Origin: Candidatus Eiseniibacteriota bacterium | Lineage (GTDB): Bacteria; Eisenbacteria; RBG-16-71-46 | Direction: 5' to 3' | Assembly: GCA_031370785.1 (NCBI GenBank) | Contig: JANMQY010000054.1 | Location: forward strand, 1 to 24,249 | Length of the DNA: 24,249 bases | Part shown: positions 1,555 to 13,680 of the stretch, piece after piece | How positions within the stretch are numbered: the stretch's first letter is position 1 | Layout: every line of letters begins with the position of its first letter | Program-made: the position numbers and the translations under genes | Notes under the pieces: generated by a model | What the model was told of the DNA's origin: nothing | The model's input: the letters and a program-made list of their open reading frames with translations, nothing else | Databases searched by the model: none

Positions 1555-3624
1555 CTAGTTTCGGATTGAGCCCGTCGGACCGAGACGCAGTTCGCAGGCG
1601 ACCCACACGCTCCGCCCGGGCAGCGGGAAACCGCCCACGTCGGACACGTGGTTGTCGCCGAGATTCTTCCCCTCGATCACGAGCCGTGCGCCCGCCATCA
1701 GCCAGGTCGATACCGACGCGCCGACCAGCGTGCGACTCGTGACCCGATACAGGTTGTAGGGATCGAGATAGTTGTCCGCGATGTACTGGACGTCTCCGCT
1801 CACCCGCCAGGGTCCGCGCGAGAGATCGCAGCGCGAGTACGCCTGCCGGCCCGGGCGCTGCGGAAGGCGCTTGCCGCGCCAGTAGCTGATCGATCCATCG
1901 TCGAGCGCCGACTGCCACGTGAACGAGCCGGAGAGCGCGACGCCCGGCGCGGCGGAGGCGCGCACGCTCAGCTCTTCTCCATGAATGAGTGCGCTTGTGA
2001 CGTTCATGGCCCGCGCGGTGTTCTGCGAGCTGCGCACGTACAAGATCAGATCGCGCGGGCGCGAGACGAAGTGCATCCACTCGAGCGAAACGTCACGGCC
2101 GTGAGCCCGGGTCCTGCTCCACGCCGCGCCGGCGTCCCAGTTCTCCGCGTGCTCGGGTCGCAGGCCCGGATTGCCGAGCACGCTTCCCTGATTTCCGAAC
2201 AGCTCCATGAAGTCGGGCACGCGCTCCGCAGTCGCCCAGTTGGCGCGCAGCTCGATCCCGAGCGGCGCGACCACGCGCGCGCCGAGCTGCGGCGAGCTCA
2301 GCTCGCGCACGGCGTCAGTCGTGGTCAGCACGTTCGCGACCCCGACCGAGCGCAGATGATCCGCGATCCGGTCCCAGCGCTTCGCCGCATGGAACGTCAC
2401 GCGCTCGCCGAACGACCGCCACTGGAGCGCGGCCATGACGCCTTGCGTGCGGCGGCGGCTCTCCGGCGGATCGGTATAGCCGTCGGCGGGATCGCGCAGC
2501 AGCGCACGCTCGCCACGCTCGGACGCGCTCGTCTCGAGCGAGACTCCGGGCACGAGCGACGGCCATTCGAGATCGAGCCCGCCACTCTCGCTGTCCAGGC
2601 GGTCGTCGGTGTCGTGGCGCGTCGGCCCCAGCTCATAGGGTTTCGGCGCGTTCACCATGTCGCGAAAGCGCGTGCGCTCGCGCTCGAGCGCGCCGCGCGC
2701 GGTGAGATTGGGCACAAGGCCCGAGCCGGTGCGCGTCGCCTCGAGCTGACTCAGCGAACGCAGCAGCGTGAGGCGCGCATGCAAGGCAGGCGTCGCGCCC
2801 ATGCCGGGGATGCCCTGCGCCTTGTGGAACGCATCTTCGCGCGCGGTCACCCGCCATTCTGGCGCGGGCGACCAGTGCAGCGTTCCGAGCGCGGTGGTCG
2901 CATCGAAGCGGTTGTTCCAGCGCTCGTGCACCTCGTCGTCGGCCGGGTTGAGCGGCGTGCCGTTGTCGTCCAGGTAGTCGAAGTTGCCGTGCGACGACTG
3001 GACCCCGAGGTGAAGGAGCCCCGAGAAATCGCCGCGCACCGCGCCGCCGGTCGCGCGCCCCTCCCAGGTGTCGAAAGCGCCGCGCGCCAGGCGCAGCTCG
3101 CGCACCGCGGGCGAGGATGCGGTGACGAGGTTGATGGCACCGCCCGGCGTCGCGACGCCGAGACCGAGCGGCGCGAGCCCGCGATACACCTCGACGCGCT
3201 CGATCGCTGTGACCGGCAGGTCCGCGAGGTTGACCGCCCCGTGCGCCGCCGAGCTGAGCGGCACGCCATCGAGGAACACGGTGACCTGGCCCGCCGGCGC
3301 GCCGCGCAGCGAGAGGGTGCTGAACGCGCCGAGGCCGCCGTACTGCTGGACGTGAACGCCCGCCGCTTCGGCGAGCACTTCGGAAAGCGACTCCAGCGCG
3401 CGATTCGATGAGCCGGTGTGGAGATCGGTCACCGAAGCCGTAGGCAGGCGGCGGCGCGCGTCCAAGAGCGCGCGCTCGCGCTCGACGCGCACCTCGGGCA
3501 GCGTCACGACCGGACGCGGAGCGGGCGCGACGATCGCGGGCGTGACCGAATCGGGTGCGGCCGCGCCCACCGACAGACTGTCGGGAGCCACAGCCAGCAG
3601 CGGCAGAAGCAGCAGGGCGATCAC
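1555..3624 (-). CDS. btuB: TonB-dependent outer membrane receptor, BtuB-like (cobalamin)
   Basis: TonB box (TLPEVRV), plug motifs (QYGGLGAFSTLSLRG, VFLDGVP, IERVEVYRG, GGAINLVT) and C-terminal NLGD...PGRS motif. The substrate is inferred from the upstream cobalamin riboswitch. Confidence 0.85.
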   Translation of the reverse strand: MIALLLLPLLAVAPDSLSVGAAAPDSVTPAIVAPAPRPVVTLPEVRVERERALLDARRRLPTASVTDLHTGSSNRALESLSEVLAEAAGVHVQQYGGLGAFSTLSLRGAPAGQVTVFLDGVPLSSAAHGAVNLADLPVTAIERVEVYRGLAPLGLGVATPGGAINLVTASSPAVRELRLARGAFDTWEGRATGGAVRGDFSGLLHLGVQSSHGNFDYLDDNGTPLNPADDEVHERWNNRFDATTALGTLHWSPAPEWRVTAREDAFHKAQGIPGMGATPALHARLTLLRSLSQLEATRTGSGLVPNLTARGALERERTRFRDMVNAPKPYELGPTRHDTDDRLDSESGGLDLEWPSLVPGVSLETSASERGERALLRDPADGYTDPPESRRRTQGVMAALQWRSFGERVTFHAAKRWDRIADHLRSVGVANVLTTTDAVRELSSPQLGARVVAPLGIELRANWATAERVPDFMELFGNQGSVLGNPGLRPEHAENWDAGAAWSRTRAHGRDVSLEWMHFVSRPRDLILYVRSSQNTARAMNVTSALIHGEELSVRASAAPGVALSGSFTWQSALDDGSISYWRGKRLPQRPGRQAYSRCDLSRGPWRVSGDVQYIADNYLDPYNLYRVTSRTLVGASVSTWLMAGARLVIEGKNLGDNHVSDVGGFPLPGRSVWVACELRLGPTGSIRN

Positions 3625-8398: not shown

Positions 8399-9175
8399 AT
8401 GTATCCGATCGATCTGAAGGGCAAGAACGCGCTGGTCATGGGCGTCGCCAACCATCGCAGCCTGTCGTGGGCGATCGCGCAGTGTCTGCATCAGGCGGGC
8501 GCGCGGCTGTGCCTGACCTACGCCGGCGAGCGCTTCAAACCCATGGTCGAAGAGCTGGCGGTGACGGCGCCCGGCACGCTCCTGCTCGAATGCGACGTGA
8601 CTCGCGACGAGACCATCGACGCGGTGGCAAAGCGTCTCACCAGCGAGTGGGGCGCGATCGACGTGCTGGTGCACGGCATCGCGTTCGCGCGCAAGGAGGA
8701 CCTCGAGGGAATGTTCGTCGCCACCCCGCGCGAGGGATTCCAGATGGCGCTGGACGTGAGCGCGTACTCGCTGCTCAACATCACCAACCGCATGCTCCCG
8801 CTGCTCGAGAAGAACGGCGCCTCGATCGTGACCCTCTCCTACCTCGCGGCCGAGCGCGCCGTGCCCTCCTACAACGTGATGGGCAGCGCAAAGGCGGTGC
8901 TCGAGCAGAGCGTGCGCCAGCTCGCGTACGAGCTTGGCCCCAAGAACATCCGCATCAACGCGCTCTCGGCTGGCCCTGTCAGCACGCTCGCCGCGCGCGG
9001 GATCCATGGCTTCACCGACATGCTGAAGAAGCACGCCGAGAAGGCGCCTCTCAAGCGCAACATCTCGAAGGAAGAGGTGGGGAAGGCCGGGCTGTTCCTG
9101 CTCTCCGACCTCTCGAGCGGCATTACCGGCGAGACGCTTTACGTCGACGCGGGCTATCACATCATGGGCTGGTAG
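8399..9175 (+). CDS. fabI: Enoyl-ACP reductase FabI
   Basis: GVANHRSLSWAIA, DVSAYSL, YNVMGSAKA (Y-x6-K), INALSAGPVSTLAA, ITGETLYVDAG; SD GGAGG. Confidence 0.95.
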   Translation: MYPIDLKGKNALVMGVANHRSLSWAIAQCLHQAGARLCLTYAGERFKPMVEELAVTAPGTLLLECDVTRDETIDAVAKRLTSEWGAIDVLVHGIAFARKEDLEGMFVATPREGFQMALDVSAYSLLNITNRMLPLLEKNGASIVTLSYLAAERAVPSYNVMGSAKAVLEQSVRQLAYELGPKNIRINALSAGPVSTLAARGIHGFTDMLKKHAEKAPLKRNISKEEVGKAGLFLLSDLSSGITGETLYVDAGYHIMGW

Positions 9176-9230
9176 AGCGCGCGAGTTGCGGCGAGTCGTC
9201 TGCCGTCGCTCGACGGCACAGGCCCGTGCC

Positions 9231-10832
9231 TCAGAACCTGGTCGTCAGCCTCAGCTCCGCACCCTTGAACGCAAGCACCTGGTAACACGTGCCAGCCGTG
9301 CACGCGAGCCCACCGCGGCGCTCGCCGTAGAACAGCGTAGCCTCGTGTTTCTCGGAAACCCGCGCGTGGACGGTCGCCGCGACGAAATCGCGCGGATCCA
9401 CCGCACCGCCGAACTTCGCCGGGTCTTCTTCGAGCGGATCGTTGGTGTGCTCCCAGATCATCGCCACGCTCCCCCACTCCGCGCGTGCGGCTTCGGCTGA
9501 GAGGTAGCGATCGACGAATGTGGTCTTGCCGCGCATCGCACGCTGCTGCTGCACGTCGAGGCTCGTGGACCAGCGGGGCGTCACGCGCCAGGTCGCCGAT
9601 CCACCCATGACGCGTCGCGCTCTGAGGCCGACGAACTCGTCCCGGCCGCGGTCGTAGAATAGCGCACCTTCGATCGTCGCTCGCGCTGGCCTCATGCGCA
9701 GTTCGAAGAATCGCTCCTCGAATCGTTTCGGCGTGATCGACCGCTTCGTGTCCGCGCGCGTGAGATTCGCGGTCGCAGTCAACCCGAGCGGCGCGGCCCA
9801 CGCGCCTTCGAGCTGAAAGCCACGCTCGTCGTCAGCATTCAGCACGTGCGTGCCGCGATTCAGGAGGTGCGCCGACTGCTCGCGCACCAGCGAAGGCGGA
9901 TCGTTCGTGCCGAGCCGGAAGTGCTGATAGTCCTTCCACTCGGCCGAGAAGCTGACCGTGTTCCAGATGAGATTCGCGGACGCGTACAGCGCATGCGTAT
10001 CGCGCGTCGCGGTCGAGAACGATGTCCACTGAGAAGCCTTGCGACCGAGCTGCGCGTACTCGAAGTAGAGTGGCAGCGAGACCGCGTGAATGGCGAACGC
10101 ATCGAGCGGATCGATGCCCGCGAATCCCGAACCCAGCTCCTGCTGCTGCGCGCCGGTGCTGGTCGAGCGCAGGTAGGCGGCGCCGACCGTGCCGCTGCCA
10201 TGAAAGTCGAGCGAGGTCTGTCCGCCGGCGAGCTCTCCGGCGTAGCGGACCGAGCCCGTGCCCGGCGACGAGAGCCCGGTGTTCGCCGTGCCGGCGAGGA
10301 GCCGCGTGCTCCAGGGTCCGAGCGACGCCTCGACCAGTGCCCCGTCCACGTCGCGCGAAGGTCCGTAGCGCGAAAGCGTGCTCTGCTCGTTCAGGATGAC
10401 TCCCGGCAGCTCGAACGAGCGATGGATCATTCCGCGCCCGAGCAGCGTATAGACGGTTCCGACACGCGCGCGCAGGTGGTTGTCGCTCCACTCGACGAAG
10501 CGCCGGGTGAACGTCGCGTACGCGAGCGTATTGTCGCTGCTGCGATCGGTCTCGAAGCGTCCGCCGATTCGCCCCCACGACGTGCGCACGTCCAGATCGA
10601 GGGCATCGTAGAGTGAGGTGCGATTGGGCGGATTCAGGAACGGCACGTTGCCGGCCTGTGCCTCGAGCAGGTTGGTGCCCTGGATCTGCGTCTGTGCCAG
10701 GCTCATGCTGCAGGACGCCAGAAGGAATGCGGCGCCGAACGTGAGAACTCGCAGCGTCGGCACCGACACGTGCGCCAGCACACGCGCCGTCGCGGCCCAG
10801 GCGAGGGTGGCGCGAGCGAGATCGTGAATCAA
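9231..10832 (-). CDS. Outer-membrane beta-barrel protein, DUF6029-like, with C-terminal CxxGxC
   Basis: Amphipathic beta-strand pattern and terminal Phe (…LRLTTRF). Motifs G.VYTLLGRG, EWKDY, NDPPSL and GERRGGLACTAGTC recall DUF6029. TTG 10832 overlaps the TlpA stop (TTGA); GTG 10769 is an alternative start. Confidence 0.7.
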   Translation of the reverse strand: MIHDLARATLAWAATARVLAHVSVPTLRVLTFGAAFLLASCSMSLAQTQIQGTNLLEAQAGNVPFLNPPNRTSLYDALDLDVRTSWGRIGGRFETDRSSDNTLAYATFTRRFVEWSDNHLRARVGTVYTLLGRGMIHRSFELPGVILNEQSTLSRYGPSRDVDGALVEASLGPWSTRLLAGTANTGLSSPGTGSVRYAGELAGGQTSLDFHGSGTVGAAYLRSTSTGAQQQELGSGFAGIDPLDAFAIHAVSLPLYFEYAQLGRKASQWTSFSTATRDTHALYASANLIWNTVSFSAEWKDYQHFRLGTNDPPSLVREQSAHLLNRGTHVLNADDERGFQLEGAWAAPLGLTATANLTRADTKRSITPKRFEERFFELRMRPARATIEGALFYDRGRDEFVGLRARRVMGGSATWRVTPRWSTSLDVQQQRAMRGKTTFVDRYLSAEAARAEWGSVAMIWEHTNDPLEEDPAKFGGAVDPRDFVAATVHARVSEKHEATLFYGERRGGLACTAGTCYQVLAFKGAELRLTTRF

Positions 10833-11491
10833 CGACCGCCCGCCGAATCCGCTGCGGCCGAGTCTGCATGCACGGCGGGCGCCGCCATCGCGCCGGGATT
10901 TTGCAAGGAGTCGATCGCCGCCGAGTCTGCGCGCGCCGCAAGCAGCGTACGAACCGCGGCCTCGAGCGAGGCGATCTCGCCGGGGTGATAGCCTTCAGTC
11001 ACGCGCACCATCGCACCGCTTCGATCGATGAGCACGGTGGTCGGCATGGCGCGCACCGCGAAGCGCTGCGACAGACTTCCGTCCGCATCGAGAGCGATGG
11101 GATAGGTGATGCCGAGCTTCGAGGCAAATGGCCGCACGCGCGCGAAGTTGCGAGGTCCGTCGACCGAGATGCCGATAACGGTGAGCCCCCGGGCCGAATA
11201 GGTGCGATGGAGGCGCTGCAACTCGGGAATCTCTTCGAGGCACGGCTTGCACCACGTTGCCCAGAAGTCGACCAGCACCGGACCATGCGCGCGCAGCCTG
11301 TCGAGATCGAGCATCTCGCCCGAGACACTGCGAACGTGGAAGGCTGGAGCTTCCGCAGCGCGCGAGTGTGAAGCGATCGCGACCGCCATGGCCAGCGCCG
11401 CGCACGCGACCGCCAGCACCATTCGTGCACGGATCGCGCGCCAGGGCGAGCGGGGCCGGCGCATGAGGGCGACCGATCGGCGTGCGCTCAT
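10829..11491 (-). CDS. Exported TlpA/ResA-family thiol-disulfide reductase
   Basis: VDFWATWCKPC, GISVD and cis-Pro MPTT motifs; signal peptide; ATGA overlap with the upstream gene. Confidence 0.9.
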   Translation of the reverse strand: MSARRSVALMRRPRSPWRAIRARMVLAVACAALAMAVAIASHSRAAEAPAFHVRSVSGEMLDLDRLRAHGPVLVDFWATWCKPCLEEIPELQRLHRTYSARGLTVIGISVDGPRNFARVRPFASKLGITYPIALDADGSLSQRFAVRAMPTTVLIDRSGAMVRVTEGYHPGEIASLEAAVRTLLAARADSAAIDSLQNPGAMAAPAVHADSAAADSAGGR

Positions 11492-12330
11492 GGCACGAGC
11501 GCGATGCGACGCAGGACCCGCATGCCGCCGCGCTGTGCGCGAATCAGGTAGATCCCCGCCGCAACTTTCGCCCCCTCGTCGGTGCGCGCGTTCCAGGTCA
11601 CGCGCAGCACACCGCCGGGGATGGGCCGGTTCCAGAGCGTCGCGATGCGTCGTCCGTCGAGGCCGAAGACCTCGACGCGTGCAGCCGCCGCGTCATCTGC
11701 GGGAGCGCGGAACTCGATGGAAACGTCTCCGTGTGAAGGATTGGGCGACGCCGCAAGAGCCAGAGATCCCAGCGTTCCCGGGCCGACTCCCGCATTGCTG
11801 CTCACGAGCGAATCCACAGCGCCACGGATTTCATTCAGGTGGTAGCGATTTCCATGAGGCCACGTGAGCGCAGCGTGGTAGCGAACGATGCCTTGCTTGT
11901 TGATGACAATGAAGTTGTCGAACGGTCCATAGAGCGCGTCGAGGTTGCCGCCGGTCGAACTCGAGCCGTAGTTGAGCAGGGGGAACGTCACCCCGGTCGC
12001 GTCCTGAAAGGTCTGCAGTTTCGCCGGATTGGTGTCGGTGTAGAGATCGGCGCCGAGCACGACCACCTGGCCCGGGTTCATGCTCTGGTAATGCTGAAGG
12101 ATGTCGGCTTCGACCGAAGGACCATTCTGGAGACAGAACGGGCAGCTGTACCCGAGCAGGAACAACACGACCACCTTGCCGGAATAATCCGAGAGCGACC
12201 GCGAAACGGAATTCAGATCGGTCTTGGTGAATTCGGGCGCCGTCGCTCCGTTCGGGATCAGCGCGTGCGCCGGGGTCGCAGCGACGCACGTCGCCAGCGC
12301 GATCAGAAGTCGGGAAACGACAGGTCTCAT
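11488..12330 (-). CDS. Secreted redoxin (AhpC/TSA-TlpA fold, CPFC) fused to C-terminal FlgD-Ig/T9SS-CTD-like domain
   Basis: ATG 12330 with SD GGAGGT; signal peptide ending AHA; APEFTKTDL...SLSDYSGKVVVL...SCPFC; tail SPNP...GLDGRRIATL...WN...GIYLIR. Confidence 0.85.
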   Translation of the reverse strand: MRPVVSRLLIALATCVAATPAHALIPNGATAPEFTKTDLNSVSRSLSDYSGKVVVLFLLGYSCPFCLQNGPSVEADILQHYQSMNPGQVVVLGADLYTDTNPAKLQTFQDATGVTFPLLNYGSSSTGGNLDALYGPFDNFIVINKQGIVRYHAALTWPHGNRYHLNEIRGAVDSLVSSNAGVGPGTLGSLALAASPNPSHGDVSIEFRAPADDAAAARVEVFGLDGRRIATLWNRPIPGGVLRVTWNARTDEGAKVAAGIYLIRAQRGGMRVLRRIALVP

Positions 12331-12369
12331 GAAAGCCACCTCCATGGAGTCGCGTGTGGGCGCGCAACG

Positions 12370-12552
12370 TCGCGCGATCGGCCTGAGTCTATCAGGGAGC
12401 CGTTCAGCGGATGGTTGGGTGCGGGAGATACGTCCCAGGTCCAGCGGATGTGACCCGTTTGCCCGCACTGTTGCACGCACGCCGCACCCACCCCATACGC
12501 CTGCTGAATCCGGGCGGTTCAGGCCCGGGCGAATCACGCCGAGATCGTGCGA
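12370..12552 (+). ncRNA. Candidate 6S-RNA-like structured ncRNA (~183 nt rod with central internal loop)
   Basis: Nested helices: 12370-79/12543-52, 12380-87/12518-25, 12403-10/12501-08, 12411-14/12493-96, 12416-24/12482-90. Three of them contain a G-U pair on the + strand. It carries the 6S-like CCTGAG and CTGAATC-N5-GGTTCAGG elements. Confidence 0.4.
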
Positions 12553-12585
12553 TTTCAGGGTCCAGGCTCGAGTTCGAGCGCCCCG

Positions 12586-12610
12586 GGAATAGCACCCTCC
12601 CTCTGGCGTA
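12586..12610 (+). promoter_or_regulatory. Putative ECF sigma-factor promoter
   Basis: GGAAT (12586-90), 16 nt, CGTA (12607-10), about 56 nt upstream of ATG 12667. Confidence 0.45.
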
Positions 12611-12666
12611 ATCCATGCGAAGCCCACGCTGAGACCCGACCCGGATTCGCCAAACGGAGGAACGTC

Positions 12667-13680
12667 ATGAACCTCACGCTACTCGTCCAGAACCTGCGCA
12701 GTGCGATCCACTGGCTGCGCGCCAGTCTTGCACTCGCATCGCTCGCGGGTCGGGAGCCCGAACGAATTCCGGTGCCCGTTCCCGTGCGTCGTCCCTCGCC
12801 CTACGCGAGAGTGATCGCCTGCACGCTCGGGCTGTCGCTGGTCGCGATCGCGCCCCAGGCGCACGCGGCTCAGTGGCGGCCGGCCTCCAACACCCATGTG
12901 CGCGGCCAGCTGGTGGACGTGCAGATGGTGGTGGACGGCAGCGCCGCACCGCTGTTTCAGCGTCGTGGCCAGTGGGACAAGAGCTACTTCGAAGCATTCA
13001 CCGGTCGCAACTATTCGATTCGCCTGCACAACCTGACCAGCGAGCGGATCGGCGTGCTGATCACGGTGGACGGCCTCAATGTCGTGAACGGTGAGCGCAC
13101 CGGCCTCGGCAACAACGAGTCGATGTACGTGCTCGACCCGTACGAGAGCAGCAGCATCCGCGGATGGCGGAGCTCGCTCGATGAGGTGCGCCGCTTCGTC
13201 TTCGTCGACGAGGAGCGGTCCTACGCCTCGCGCACCAATCAGGCGAATGGTGACATGGGCTGGATCCGCGTGGTCACGTTCCGGGAGAACCGGCCGATCA
13301 GCCGCTGGGGCCAGATCAAGGGAGGCTACCGCGATGGCGGCGGGAGCGACGGCGCGGTGCCCTACGACTCGAGCCCGCAGAGCGGCGAGGAGTCGCGCAC
13401 TCAGGAGCGCGCACCGCGCAGCGCGGCGCCGGATGCGGCGAAAGACTACGCCTACAACCACGACGAGTCGGCGCCCGGCACGGGCTGGGGCGAGCGGAGC
13501 CGCGATCCGGTGAACCGCACCGTCTTCAACGCCAACGCCGACGCCTCGGACATGATCGTGCTGCGTTACGAGTACGAGTCTGGCCTGCGCGCGCTGGGCA
13601 TCTACCCGCGCCGCGACCGGAACCGGACGTGGGAGCGCGAGCAGGGCGATCTGGGATTCGCGAAGCCGCCGCGCTGGTAG
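12667..13680 (+). CDS. Hypothetical, probably exported beta-sandwich protein
   Basis: SD GGAGG at 12656-60 and ATG 12667. Internal signal-like segment ending AHA. Conserved-looking YSIRLHN...VDGLNVVNG...YVLDP...IRGWR...FVF...SYASRT core. Followed by a terminator. Confidence 0.8.
   Translation: MNLTLLVQNLRSAIHWLRASLALASLAGREPERIPVPVPVRRPSPYARVIACTLGLSLVAIAPQAHAAQWRPASNTHVRGQLVDVQMVVDGSAAPLFQRRGQWDKSYFEAFTGRNYSIRLHNLTSERIGVLITVDGLNVVNGERTGLGNNESMYVLDPYESSSIRGWRSSLDEVRRFVFVDEERSYASRTNQANGDMGWIRVVTFRENRPISRWGQIKGGYRDGGGSDGAVPYDSSPQSGEESRTQERAPRSAAPDAAKDYAYNHDESAPGTGWGERSRDPVNRTVFNANADASDMIVLRYEYESGLRALGIYPRRDRNRTWEREQGDLGFAKPPRW

Follow-up and report, generated by a model that had tools for sequence, protein, structure and literature searches.

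MtrCAB of Shewanella combines a redox protein on the surface with a second one in the periplasm, which sits within a large outer-membrane barrel, and it passes electrons across the outer membrane. To our knowledge, the bacterial pathways that deliver reducing power by thiols end in the periplasm, and we know of no system that carries such power across the outer membrane with thiols. How thiol and selenol enzymes outside the outer membrane could be recycled is a question on which the present locus may bear. One enzyme of this kind is HBP35 of Porphyromonas gingivalis, a type IX secretion system (T9SS) cargo with a thioredoxin domain, for which the excerpts consulted of two papers report thioredoxin activity and hemin binding (PMC13744359, PMC7712824). 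We analyzed a contig of 24,249 nucleotides from Candidatus Eiseniibacteriota bacterium (GenBank assembly GCA_031370785.1, contig JANMQY010000054.1), referred to below as the window, which is the entire contig, within a genome searched of 3.44 Mb in 147 contigs. Three adjacent genes on its minus strand encode a redoxin, a TlpA-like protein and a beta-barrel, and the initial annotation of this DNA proposed that electrons pass from periplasmic TlpA through a cysteine pair of the barrel to a surface or secreted redoxin.

We propose that these three genes encode one envelope machine, which would conduct electrons across the outer membrane by way of thiols and be built like MtrCAB; we put the probability of this reading at about 0.5. 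The first gene (11488..12330, 280 amino acids) encodes a signal peptide, a ResA-like thioredoxin domain with the active site CPFC, a flexible linker and a C-terminal beta-sandwich sorting domain. The second (10829..11491, 220 amino acids) encodes a TlpA/ResA-like thiol-disulfide oxidoreductase with a signal peptide, the active site WCKPC (W80-C84, 11240..11254, minus strand, from the translation) and a low-complexity C-terminal tail, and the third (9231..10832, 533 amino acids) encodes a DUF6029 outer-membrane beta-barrel of about 24 strands with a C-terminal Phe (...TTRF). The redoxin and TlpA genes overlap by ATGA and the TlpA and barrel genes by TTGA, and a GGAGG lies 8 bases upstream of the redoxin ATG. 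Cysteines occur at positions 15, 63 and 66 of the redoxin, 30, 81 and 84 of TlpA, and 41, 511 and 516 of the barrel, where C41 falls in the signal region and C511 and C516 are the only cysteines of the mature protein. Signal peptides were assigned by eye and from the N-terminal helices of structure models. The barrel has alternative in-frame GTG starts 17-23 codons downstream, which retain its signal peptide (...FLLASCSMSLA, cleaved before QTQ). The gene order, overlaps, active sites, sorting-domain-like tail, terminal Phe and sole mature cysteine pair (CTAGTC) described in the initial annotation are thus all present in the sequence.

The barrel belongs to DUF6029 (PF19494), as the initial annotation had suspected: it scores 45.4 bits over two stretches, against a cut-off of 27, and in a six-frame search of the genome the two stretches score 20.4 and 20.9 bits separately. 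Core Bacteroidota members of the family reach 475-716 bits, placing the window's barrel in a divergent branch, and its closest relatives (43-53% identity) come nearly all from metagenome-assembled genomes (MAGs) labelled Candidatus Eisenbacteria. Its two mature cysteines lie in a C-terminal hairpin of the form G-x-R-x-G-x-x-C-x4-C before the last strand, a feature that we derived here and that reads RRGGLACTAGTCY in the window; the pair itself (C511-T-A-G-T-C516, 9285..9302, minus strand) was located from the DNA and the homologue alignment between strand 23 and the last strand. All 120 close homologues listed have C-x4-C within their last 45 residues, with the pattern RRGGxAC-T-[AG]-G-T-C-Y. 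A profile search of 1.84 billion representatives returned 917 members at E <=1e-3, and among the new representatives listed C-x4-C occurs within the last 45 residues in 123 of 144, while 20 of the remaining 21 do not extend to the C-terminal part of the profile. The pair appears as C[VI]GG[VI]C in 30 of the 30 core Bacteroidota DUF6029 proteins, as CNAGIC or CSAGVC in Bacteroidota of the window's subfamily, as CNGAVC in Cloacimonetes, as CIGGVC in Calditrichaeota and as CSGGVC in a deltaproteobacterial MAG. The conservation of the pair, on which the proposed relay depended, is therefore well borne out.

Of 401 Bacteroidota genomes sampled, 102 encode a DUF6029 protein. The barrel of a Calditrichaeota MAG (L050:5227-6834), which keeps the cysteine pair, scores 199.7 bits against the family model, compared with 45.4 for the window's. 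We considered whether the barrel might be a lipoprotein, with LLASC as lipobox at residue 41, and rejected this, since its homologues mostly do not have that cysteine and retain a cleavage site of the form A-x-A followed by Q. Longer barrel proteins with fused parts (934-2665 amino acids) were looked for and none turned up, which is weak evidence. Some Wzi-like barrels resemble DUF6029 by HHpred, and polysaccharide export has been proposed for them (PMC9603273); no polysaccharide genes lie beside the window's operon.

We collected 49 barrel loci from species-representative genomes, two of which begin inside the barrel gene, leaving 47 that could be assessed. A TlpA-like gene adjoins the barrel on the same strand in 46 of these 47, so that the co-occurrence with thioredoxin-fold genes expected by the initial annotation holds across phyla. 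In core Bacteroidota, TlpA lies directly upstream of the barrel in 24 of 30 loci, and one metagenomic protein of 666 amino acids (P0048) is a natural fusion that consists of a signal peptide, TlpA, about 10 residues and the mature barrel, with no second signal peptide. Upstream of TlpA, a redoxin of the window's type, with its C-terminal domain (CTD), is present in one to three copies in 36 of the 37 Eisenbacteria-type loci that could be assessed, after exclusion of three further loci without upstream sequence; in the remaining locus (L026), the 1.9 kb available upstream contains no copy. One Eisenbacteria-type locus carries a copy after the barrel and another has copies on both sides. Since the identical gene order recurs across phyla, the redoxin-TlpA-barrel arrangement is far beyond chance.

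The third partner varies in kind among the lineages. Acidic residues after the lipoprotein cysteine mark surface lipoproteins in Bacteroidota, and the redoxins in four of the four Bacteroidota loci of the window's subfamily are tailless lipoproteins with such a stretch after the cysteine (e.g. CSDSGDD). Core Bacteroidota have a CxxC lipoprotein of 266-313 amino acids directly 3' of the barrel in 22 of 30 loci, as identified by motif. Omp28-family proteins account for 16 of the 20 downstream open reading frames (ORFs) scanned, one of which matches PDB entry 2r2c (named Omp28) at 5e-05, and the excerpts consulted of proteome papers on P. gingivalis place PG2174, PG2175 (named thioredoxin-domain protein) and Omp28 in outer-membrane vesicles. 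In Cloacimonetes, the TlpA and barrel pair occurs without the first redoxin. The loci thus generally combine a TlpA in the periplasm with a barrel and with a thioredoxin-type protein that bears a surface-sorting signal. In one Bacteroidota locus, a gene for DsbD (DsbD_N and DsbD_TM domains; L057:2-1468, minus strand) lies directly 3' of the barrel, and two other Bacteroidota genomes (L061:3265-4335 and L062:3286-4437) encode a rhodanese-domain protein of about 360-380 amino acids after it.

The AlphaFold2 (AF2) model of the barrel has about 24 strands, with a predicted local distance difference test score (pLDDT) of 91.2 and a predicted template modelling score (pTM) of 0.84. In this model C511 stands opposite C516 on a mini-hairpin formed by strands 508-512 and 515-519, which, because of the usual topology of such barrels, would lie in the last extracellular loop. 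The most conserved parts of the protein are three long loops (127-159, 303-336 and 505-522). A Foldseek search returned the 24-strand usher pores FimD and PapC as well as porins, AlgE and OprC, with TM-scores of about 0.5 or less, which indicate generic barrel likeness. When the barrel was modelled with TlpA, three runs gave ipSAE values of 0.88, 0.87 and 0.88, compared with 0.00, 0.45 and 0.00 for controls; the mark applied to this score is reached by 116 of 157 solved complexes and by 2 of 215 mismatched pairs, counts that are only rough here, as custom alignments were used. The runs gave 139-152 contacts, with an agreement of 94% or more among them and a partner pLDDT of 86 or higher. On the barrel, the contacts involve nearly every strand at the periplasmic end, two loops (128-144 and 311-320) and the cysteine hairpin at its tip (512-514), and on TlpA they include residues 78-82 (ATWCK, the active site) and 110-127 (motif DGPRN..VRPF). 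The models support a TlpA that sits inside the barrel lumen, having entered at the periplasmic end, and onto which the conserved loops and the cysteine hairpin fold. Modelling the two proteins together had been suggested with the relay, and the predicted complex does bring TlpA active-site residues and the hairpin tip into one interface inside the barrel. The role of electron donor given to TlpA is thereby modified: TlpA does pair with the barrel, but it is modelled as a plug of the lumen rather than as a free periplasmic donor. We know of no solved complex similar to this one, and recall of such a structure by the model is therefore unlikely.

The window's TlpA matches the Pfam models AhpC-TSA (80.4 bits) and Redoxin (70.4 bits), and has the thioredoxin fold, WCxxC motif and export signal of TlpA/ResA-type proteins. 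Its best NCBIfam match is ResA-like, and it stays below the cut-offs of the equivalog models tried, namely, the ResA subfamily (98.9 bits, cut-off 170), the TlpA equivalog (56.7 bits, cut-off 230) and DsbE (51.4 bits, cut-off 123). Its best solved relatives are ResA and thioredoxin-family proteins (1e-19 to 1e-21). PDB entry 2m72 matches a Bacteroidota barrel-linked TlpA at 5e-39, with the next best entry at 2e-13, and the window's TlpA at 3e-19. The window's sequence contains FWATWCKPC ... DGPRNxxxVRPF, which is common to Bacteroidota barrel-linked TlpAs, and barrel-linked TlpAs from Eisenbacteria to Bacteroidota conform to FWATWC[KSAVL]PC plus D-[GD]-x-R-x-x-x-[KR]-V-x-P. Neither motif occurs in the other thioredoxin-fold ORFs listed for the window's genome, five in number. 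Judged by these motifs, the window's TlpA belongs to a separate, barrel-linked subfamily. A full three-domain DsbD is encoded in the genome, away from the operon. In a strain about 97% identical to the window, found in two metatranscriptome runs, 63 bases are missing in frame at 10857-10919, corresponding to about residues 191-211 in the low-complexity tail of TlpA; the tail looks dispensable because of this deletion.

The N-terminus of the redoxin reads as a signal peptide (...TPAHA, cleaved before LIP), and the protein scores above cut-off against AhpC-TSA (42.3 bits) and Redoxin (35.3 bits). Its AF2 model (pLDDT 92.6) consists of a thioredoxin fold (24-175), which carries the CPFC site (C63 and C66, 12133..12144, minus strand, from the translation), a linker (181-187, pLDDT <50) and a seven-strand sandwich (191-278). 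Among solved structures, the thioredoxin domain comes nearest to ResA-type oxidoreductases (TM-score by target 0.83-0.87), ahead of AhpE and Bcp. A peroxiredoxin (AhpC/BCP) identity was considered for the redoxins of the operon and set aside: the peroxidatic motif PxxxTxxC is absent, the active sites read GYSCPFC and ATWCKPC, and the redoxin fold is ResA-type.

The C-terminal sorting domain of the redoxin (residues ~191-280, 11491..11760, minus strand) is probably a T9SS CTD, as judged from hidden Markov model (HMM) matches below cut-off and from tail matches across the genome. The tail (191-280) matches 65 stop-to-stop ORFs of the window's genome, and among the matches listed (45 of the 65) the main match ends 0-11 residues from the C-terminus in every ORF. 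It also matches the CTD part of the PorU model (C114:11536-11760). The genome encodes PorU (466.8 bits, cut-off 420) and SprA (387.4 bits, cut-off 200); PorU, the T9SS sortase, lies at G000:C142:9950-14319, and about 230 bases on is a PorV-like gene with 115.8 bits, below the cut-off of 250. The redoxin thus carries a C-terminal beta-sandwich of about 80 residues that is common to many ORFs of a genome encoding T9SS. Because this tail recurs at the C-termini of about 65 ORFs and the genome has PorU and SprA, the window's redoxin is probably a T9SS cargo, and the export that the initial annotation expected for it is most likely. Elsewhere in the window, a second protein with the same type of sorting tail is encoded directly downstream of a TonB-dependent receptor gene (139-1542 and 1555-3624, both on the minus strand).

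The active site of the redoxin has a selenocysteine form in relatives. In 30 homologous redoxin genes an in-frame TGA stands at the first cysteine of CxxC, giving UxxC (31 adjacent frame pairs were found, one of which is a gene boundary), and the CTD redoxin is a selenoprotein in most of its Eisenbacteria copies (loci L003-L042, e.g. L006:3865-3919). The TGA genes have a conserved GCCGACGGTCCGTCGGT hairpin 3' of the TGA, at positions 15-33 from its first base, with seven pairs, three of which show compensatory changes. Cysteine occupies the first active-site position in 11 full-length copies and in the window's own redoxin, which has TGC (Cys63) and is thus the cysteine form and not a UxxC selenoprotein; SelB is encoded in the window's genome (348 bits, cut-off 242). 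The switch between selenocysteine and cysteine is at the attacking position, and the redoxin site is therefore a catalytic redox site. UxxC selenoproteins of the redoxin family are catalogued in a table of PMC13188914, which gives no function for them.

The operon is flanked by a convergent FabI gene, by genes for an amino-acid permease and a ModABC-like transporter, and by a divergent gene without a Pfam match, none of which has a bearing on thiol chemistry. The divergent gene (12547-13680, plus strand, 377 amino acids), relatives of which occur in 17 of the Eisenbacteria barrel loci fetched, may share the control region of the operon. A scan of 8900-12900 found no promoter-like site and two terminator-like sites, compared with 1.8 expected, a result that carries no information. 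Four metatranscriptome runs from one study contain operon sequence. In two of them, 9-kb contigs of the strain ~97% identical to the window span the entire 8900-12900; the other two runs have contigs of 151-273 nt, at a depth of 2-4, on the redoxin gene, the redoxin/TlpA junction and the 3' end of the barrel gene. Neither kind of contig can prove transcription or a single transcript, and the parts left uncovered mean nothing.

In the mechanism that we propose, the DUF6029 protein would form an outer-membrane barrel of ~24 strands, the TlpA domain would enter it from the periplasmic side and plug the lower lumen, and the long conserved outer loops L3, L7 and the last loop, which holds C511 and C516, would fold down onto TlpA. 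TlpA would obtain electrons from DsbD, directly or via a shuttle, and its exposed C81 would reduce the cross-strand disulfide C511-C516. This pair, or TlpA itself, would then reduce the redoxin placed on the surface by T9SS, at its CPFC site (UxxC in most relatives), and the redoxin would in turn reduce extracellular or surface targets. The gene anatomy, the conservation of the cysteine pair and of the partnership with TlpA, the T9SS genes and the structure models fit such a path, while every electron-transfer step, the redoxin's place on the cell surface and the substrate it acts on are what we infer. On computational examination of the points on which the initial annotation had made the relay depend, namely, the conservation and role of the barrel cysteines, the co-occurrence with thioredoxin-fold genes and the export of the redoxin, none was found to refute the idea, which is thus partly supported. 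The wider claim, that a DUF6029 barrel plugged by TlpA is a thiol/selenol electron conduit ("porin-thioredoxin complex") widespread in the FCB group (Eisenbacteria, Bacteroidota and allies), fed by DsbD, keeping secreted or lipid-anchored Cys/Sec surface redoxins reduced and forming the thiol counterpart of heme-based MtrCAB, we hold more tentatively, at a little short of even odds.

Several observations weigh against this proposal. In the Calditrichaeota locus L050, the exception among the 47, the barrel has no thioredoxin-fold neighbor among the genes examined and lies instead near YidC, MnmE, an LPG-synthase-like protein and GreA, and 6 of the 30 core Bacteroidota loci have no upstream TlpA at the threshold used. 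The only full-length representative listed without the pair, P0243 (492 amino acids), has YTSGIF in place of CTSGIC and has thus lost both cysteines. The redoxin tail falls under the cut-off of every CTD model in the comparison, namely, FlgD_ig (26.3 bits, cut-off 27), Por_Secre_tail PF18962 (14.5 bits, cut-off 27) and TIGR04183 (17.6 bits, cut-off 23). The modelled interface is listed by residue (512-514 on the barrel, 78-82 on TlpA), which is not the same as a contact of C81 with C511 or C516, and the unrelated control with an ipSAE of 0.45 had 69 confident contacts, indicating that the model tends to place small proteins in the lumen. Moreover, a C-x4-C pair that bridges a hairpin may act as a staple and serve structure alone, a TlpA seated in the outer membrane poses the problem of how a DsbD in the inner membrane would re-reduce it, and electrons fed to an oxidizing exterior would be a cost for the cell.

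These reservations give room to other explanations of the same loci. The barrel could be a scaffold or export route that anchors thioredoxin-fold surface proteins or helps to export them, with a structural disulfide and with TlpA as an assembly factor for cysteines of the barrel or its cargo. Pairs of a barrel and a lipoprotein are common in Bacteroidota, and the Omp28-type lipoproteins directly 3' of the barrel would suit such a function. However, the window's redoxin has a T9SS-type tail of its own and so needs no other export route, the TlpA motif conserved from Eisenbacteria to Bacteroidota sits in the modelled interface, and the natural fusion P0048 argues for a permanent partner over a transient assembly factor; we therefore think this explanation unlikely. 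The position of TlpA in the modelled lumen, with the hairpin tip on it, would equally suit a redox-gated channel in which TlpA is a removable plug, the state of C511-C516 opens or closes a pore for a solute or protein, and the redoxin is a client or an unrelated neighbor. About 24 strands are also found in usher pores, which are plugged protein channels, and the Cloacimonetes pairs of TlpA and barrel without the first redoxin fit as well. Such a simple gate needs no third protein, whereas a surface-directed one of the thioredoxin type is present in most loci of two phyla, and the FabI, permease and ModABC-like neighbors suggest no transported substrate, making a gate distinctly unlikely in our estimate.

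It is also conceivable that the barrel serves only to admit an oxidized substrate (peroxide, disulfide or metalloid, for example), which both redoxins would reduce in the periplasm or the lumen. Both proteins do match the AhpC/TSA and Redoxin models, and selenocysteine forms are typical of fast redox catalysts, as far as the table in PMC13188914 goes. We nevertheless regard detoxification of this kind as very improbable, since the redoxin fold and CxxC are of the ResA type and PxxxTxxC is absent, the surface-sorting signals (a CTD, or a lipoprotein cysteine with an acidic stretch) argue against a periplasmic site of action, and the lumen is modelled as filled by TlpA.

If the proposed electron path is real, disulfide-exchange chemistry would for the first time have a route across an outer membrane. 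The path would also give a function to DUF6029, with its 917 family representatives and its presence in those 102 of the 401 Bacteroidota genomes, it would explain the exported UxxC selenoproteins, and it may bear on how the surface cysteine enzymes of organisms with T9SS stay active in oxidizing surroundings. The literature that we searched on TlpA with an outer-membrane barrel, on Omp28 with thioredoxin and on selenoproteins with T9SS yielded no description of the module.

Among the described systems, HBP35 is an earlier example of a surface-located thiol enzyme, but the excerpts consulted of the papers cited above describe neither a dedicated barrel nor a TlpA partner for it. The TlpA-DUF6029-Omp28 module of Bacteroidota is closer, as its TlpA belongs to the same subfamily, its DUF6029 barrel has the cysteine hairpin and it includes a CxxC partner; its third partner, however, is a downstream lipoprotein of the Omp28 family, whereas that in the window is an upstream, CTD-tailed, ResA-like redoxin. 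A large barrel lumen filled by a separate folded protein or domain is also seen in LptD-LptE and in the plugs of ushers and TonB-dependent receptors, but here the plug would be a redox enzyme encoded by the preceding gene, and the likeness of the barrels is generic (TM-score ~0.5). With the pathways from DsbD/CcdA to TlpA, ResA and CcmG, the locus shares a member of the TlpA family and a cascade of CxxC sites that would run through a membrane-embedded cysteine pair; in DsbD, however, helices span the inner membrane, whereas here the pair is in the C-x4-C hairpin of an outer-membrane beta-barrel and the acceptor would be outside the cell. As for MtrCAB, the three translations have no CxxCH, and no MtrB-type family was matched in the Pfam and NCBIfam scans. 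There are thus no hemes and no sequence relation, and cysteine or selenocysteine pairs would be the carriers in a DUF6029 barrel of ~24 strands. Nevertheless, the three-part layout and the gene order are those of mtrC-mtrA-mtrB, and TlpA as modelled in its barrel is more like MtrA in MtrB than like DsbD.

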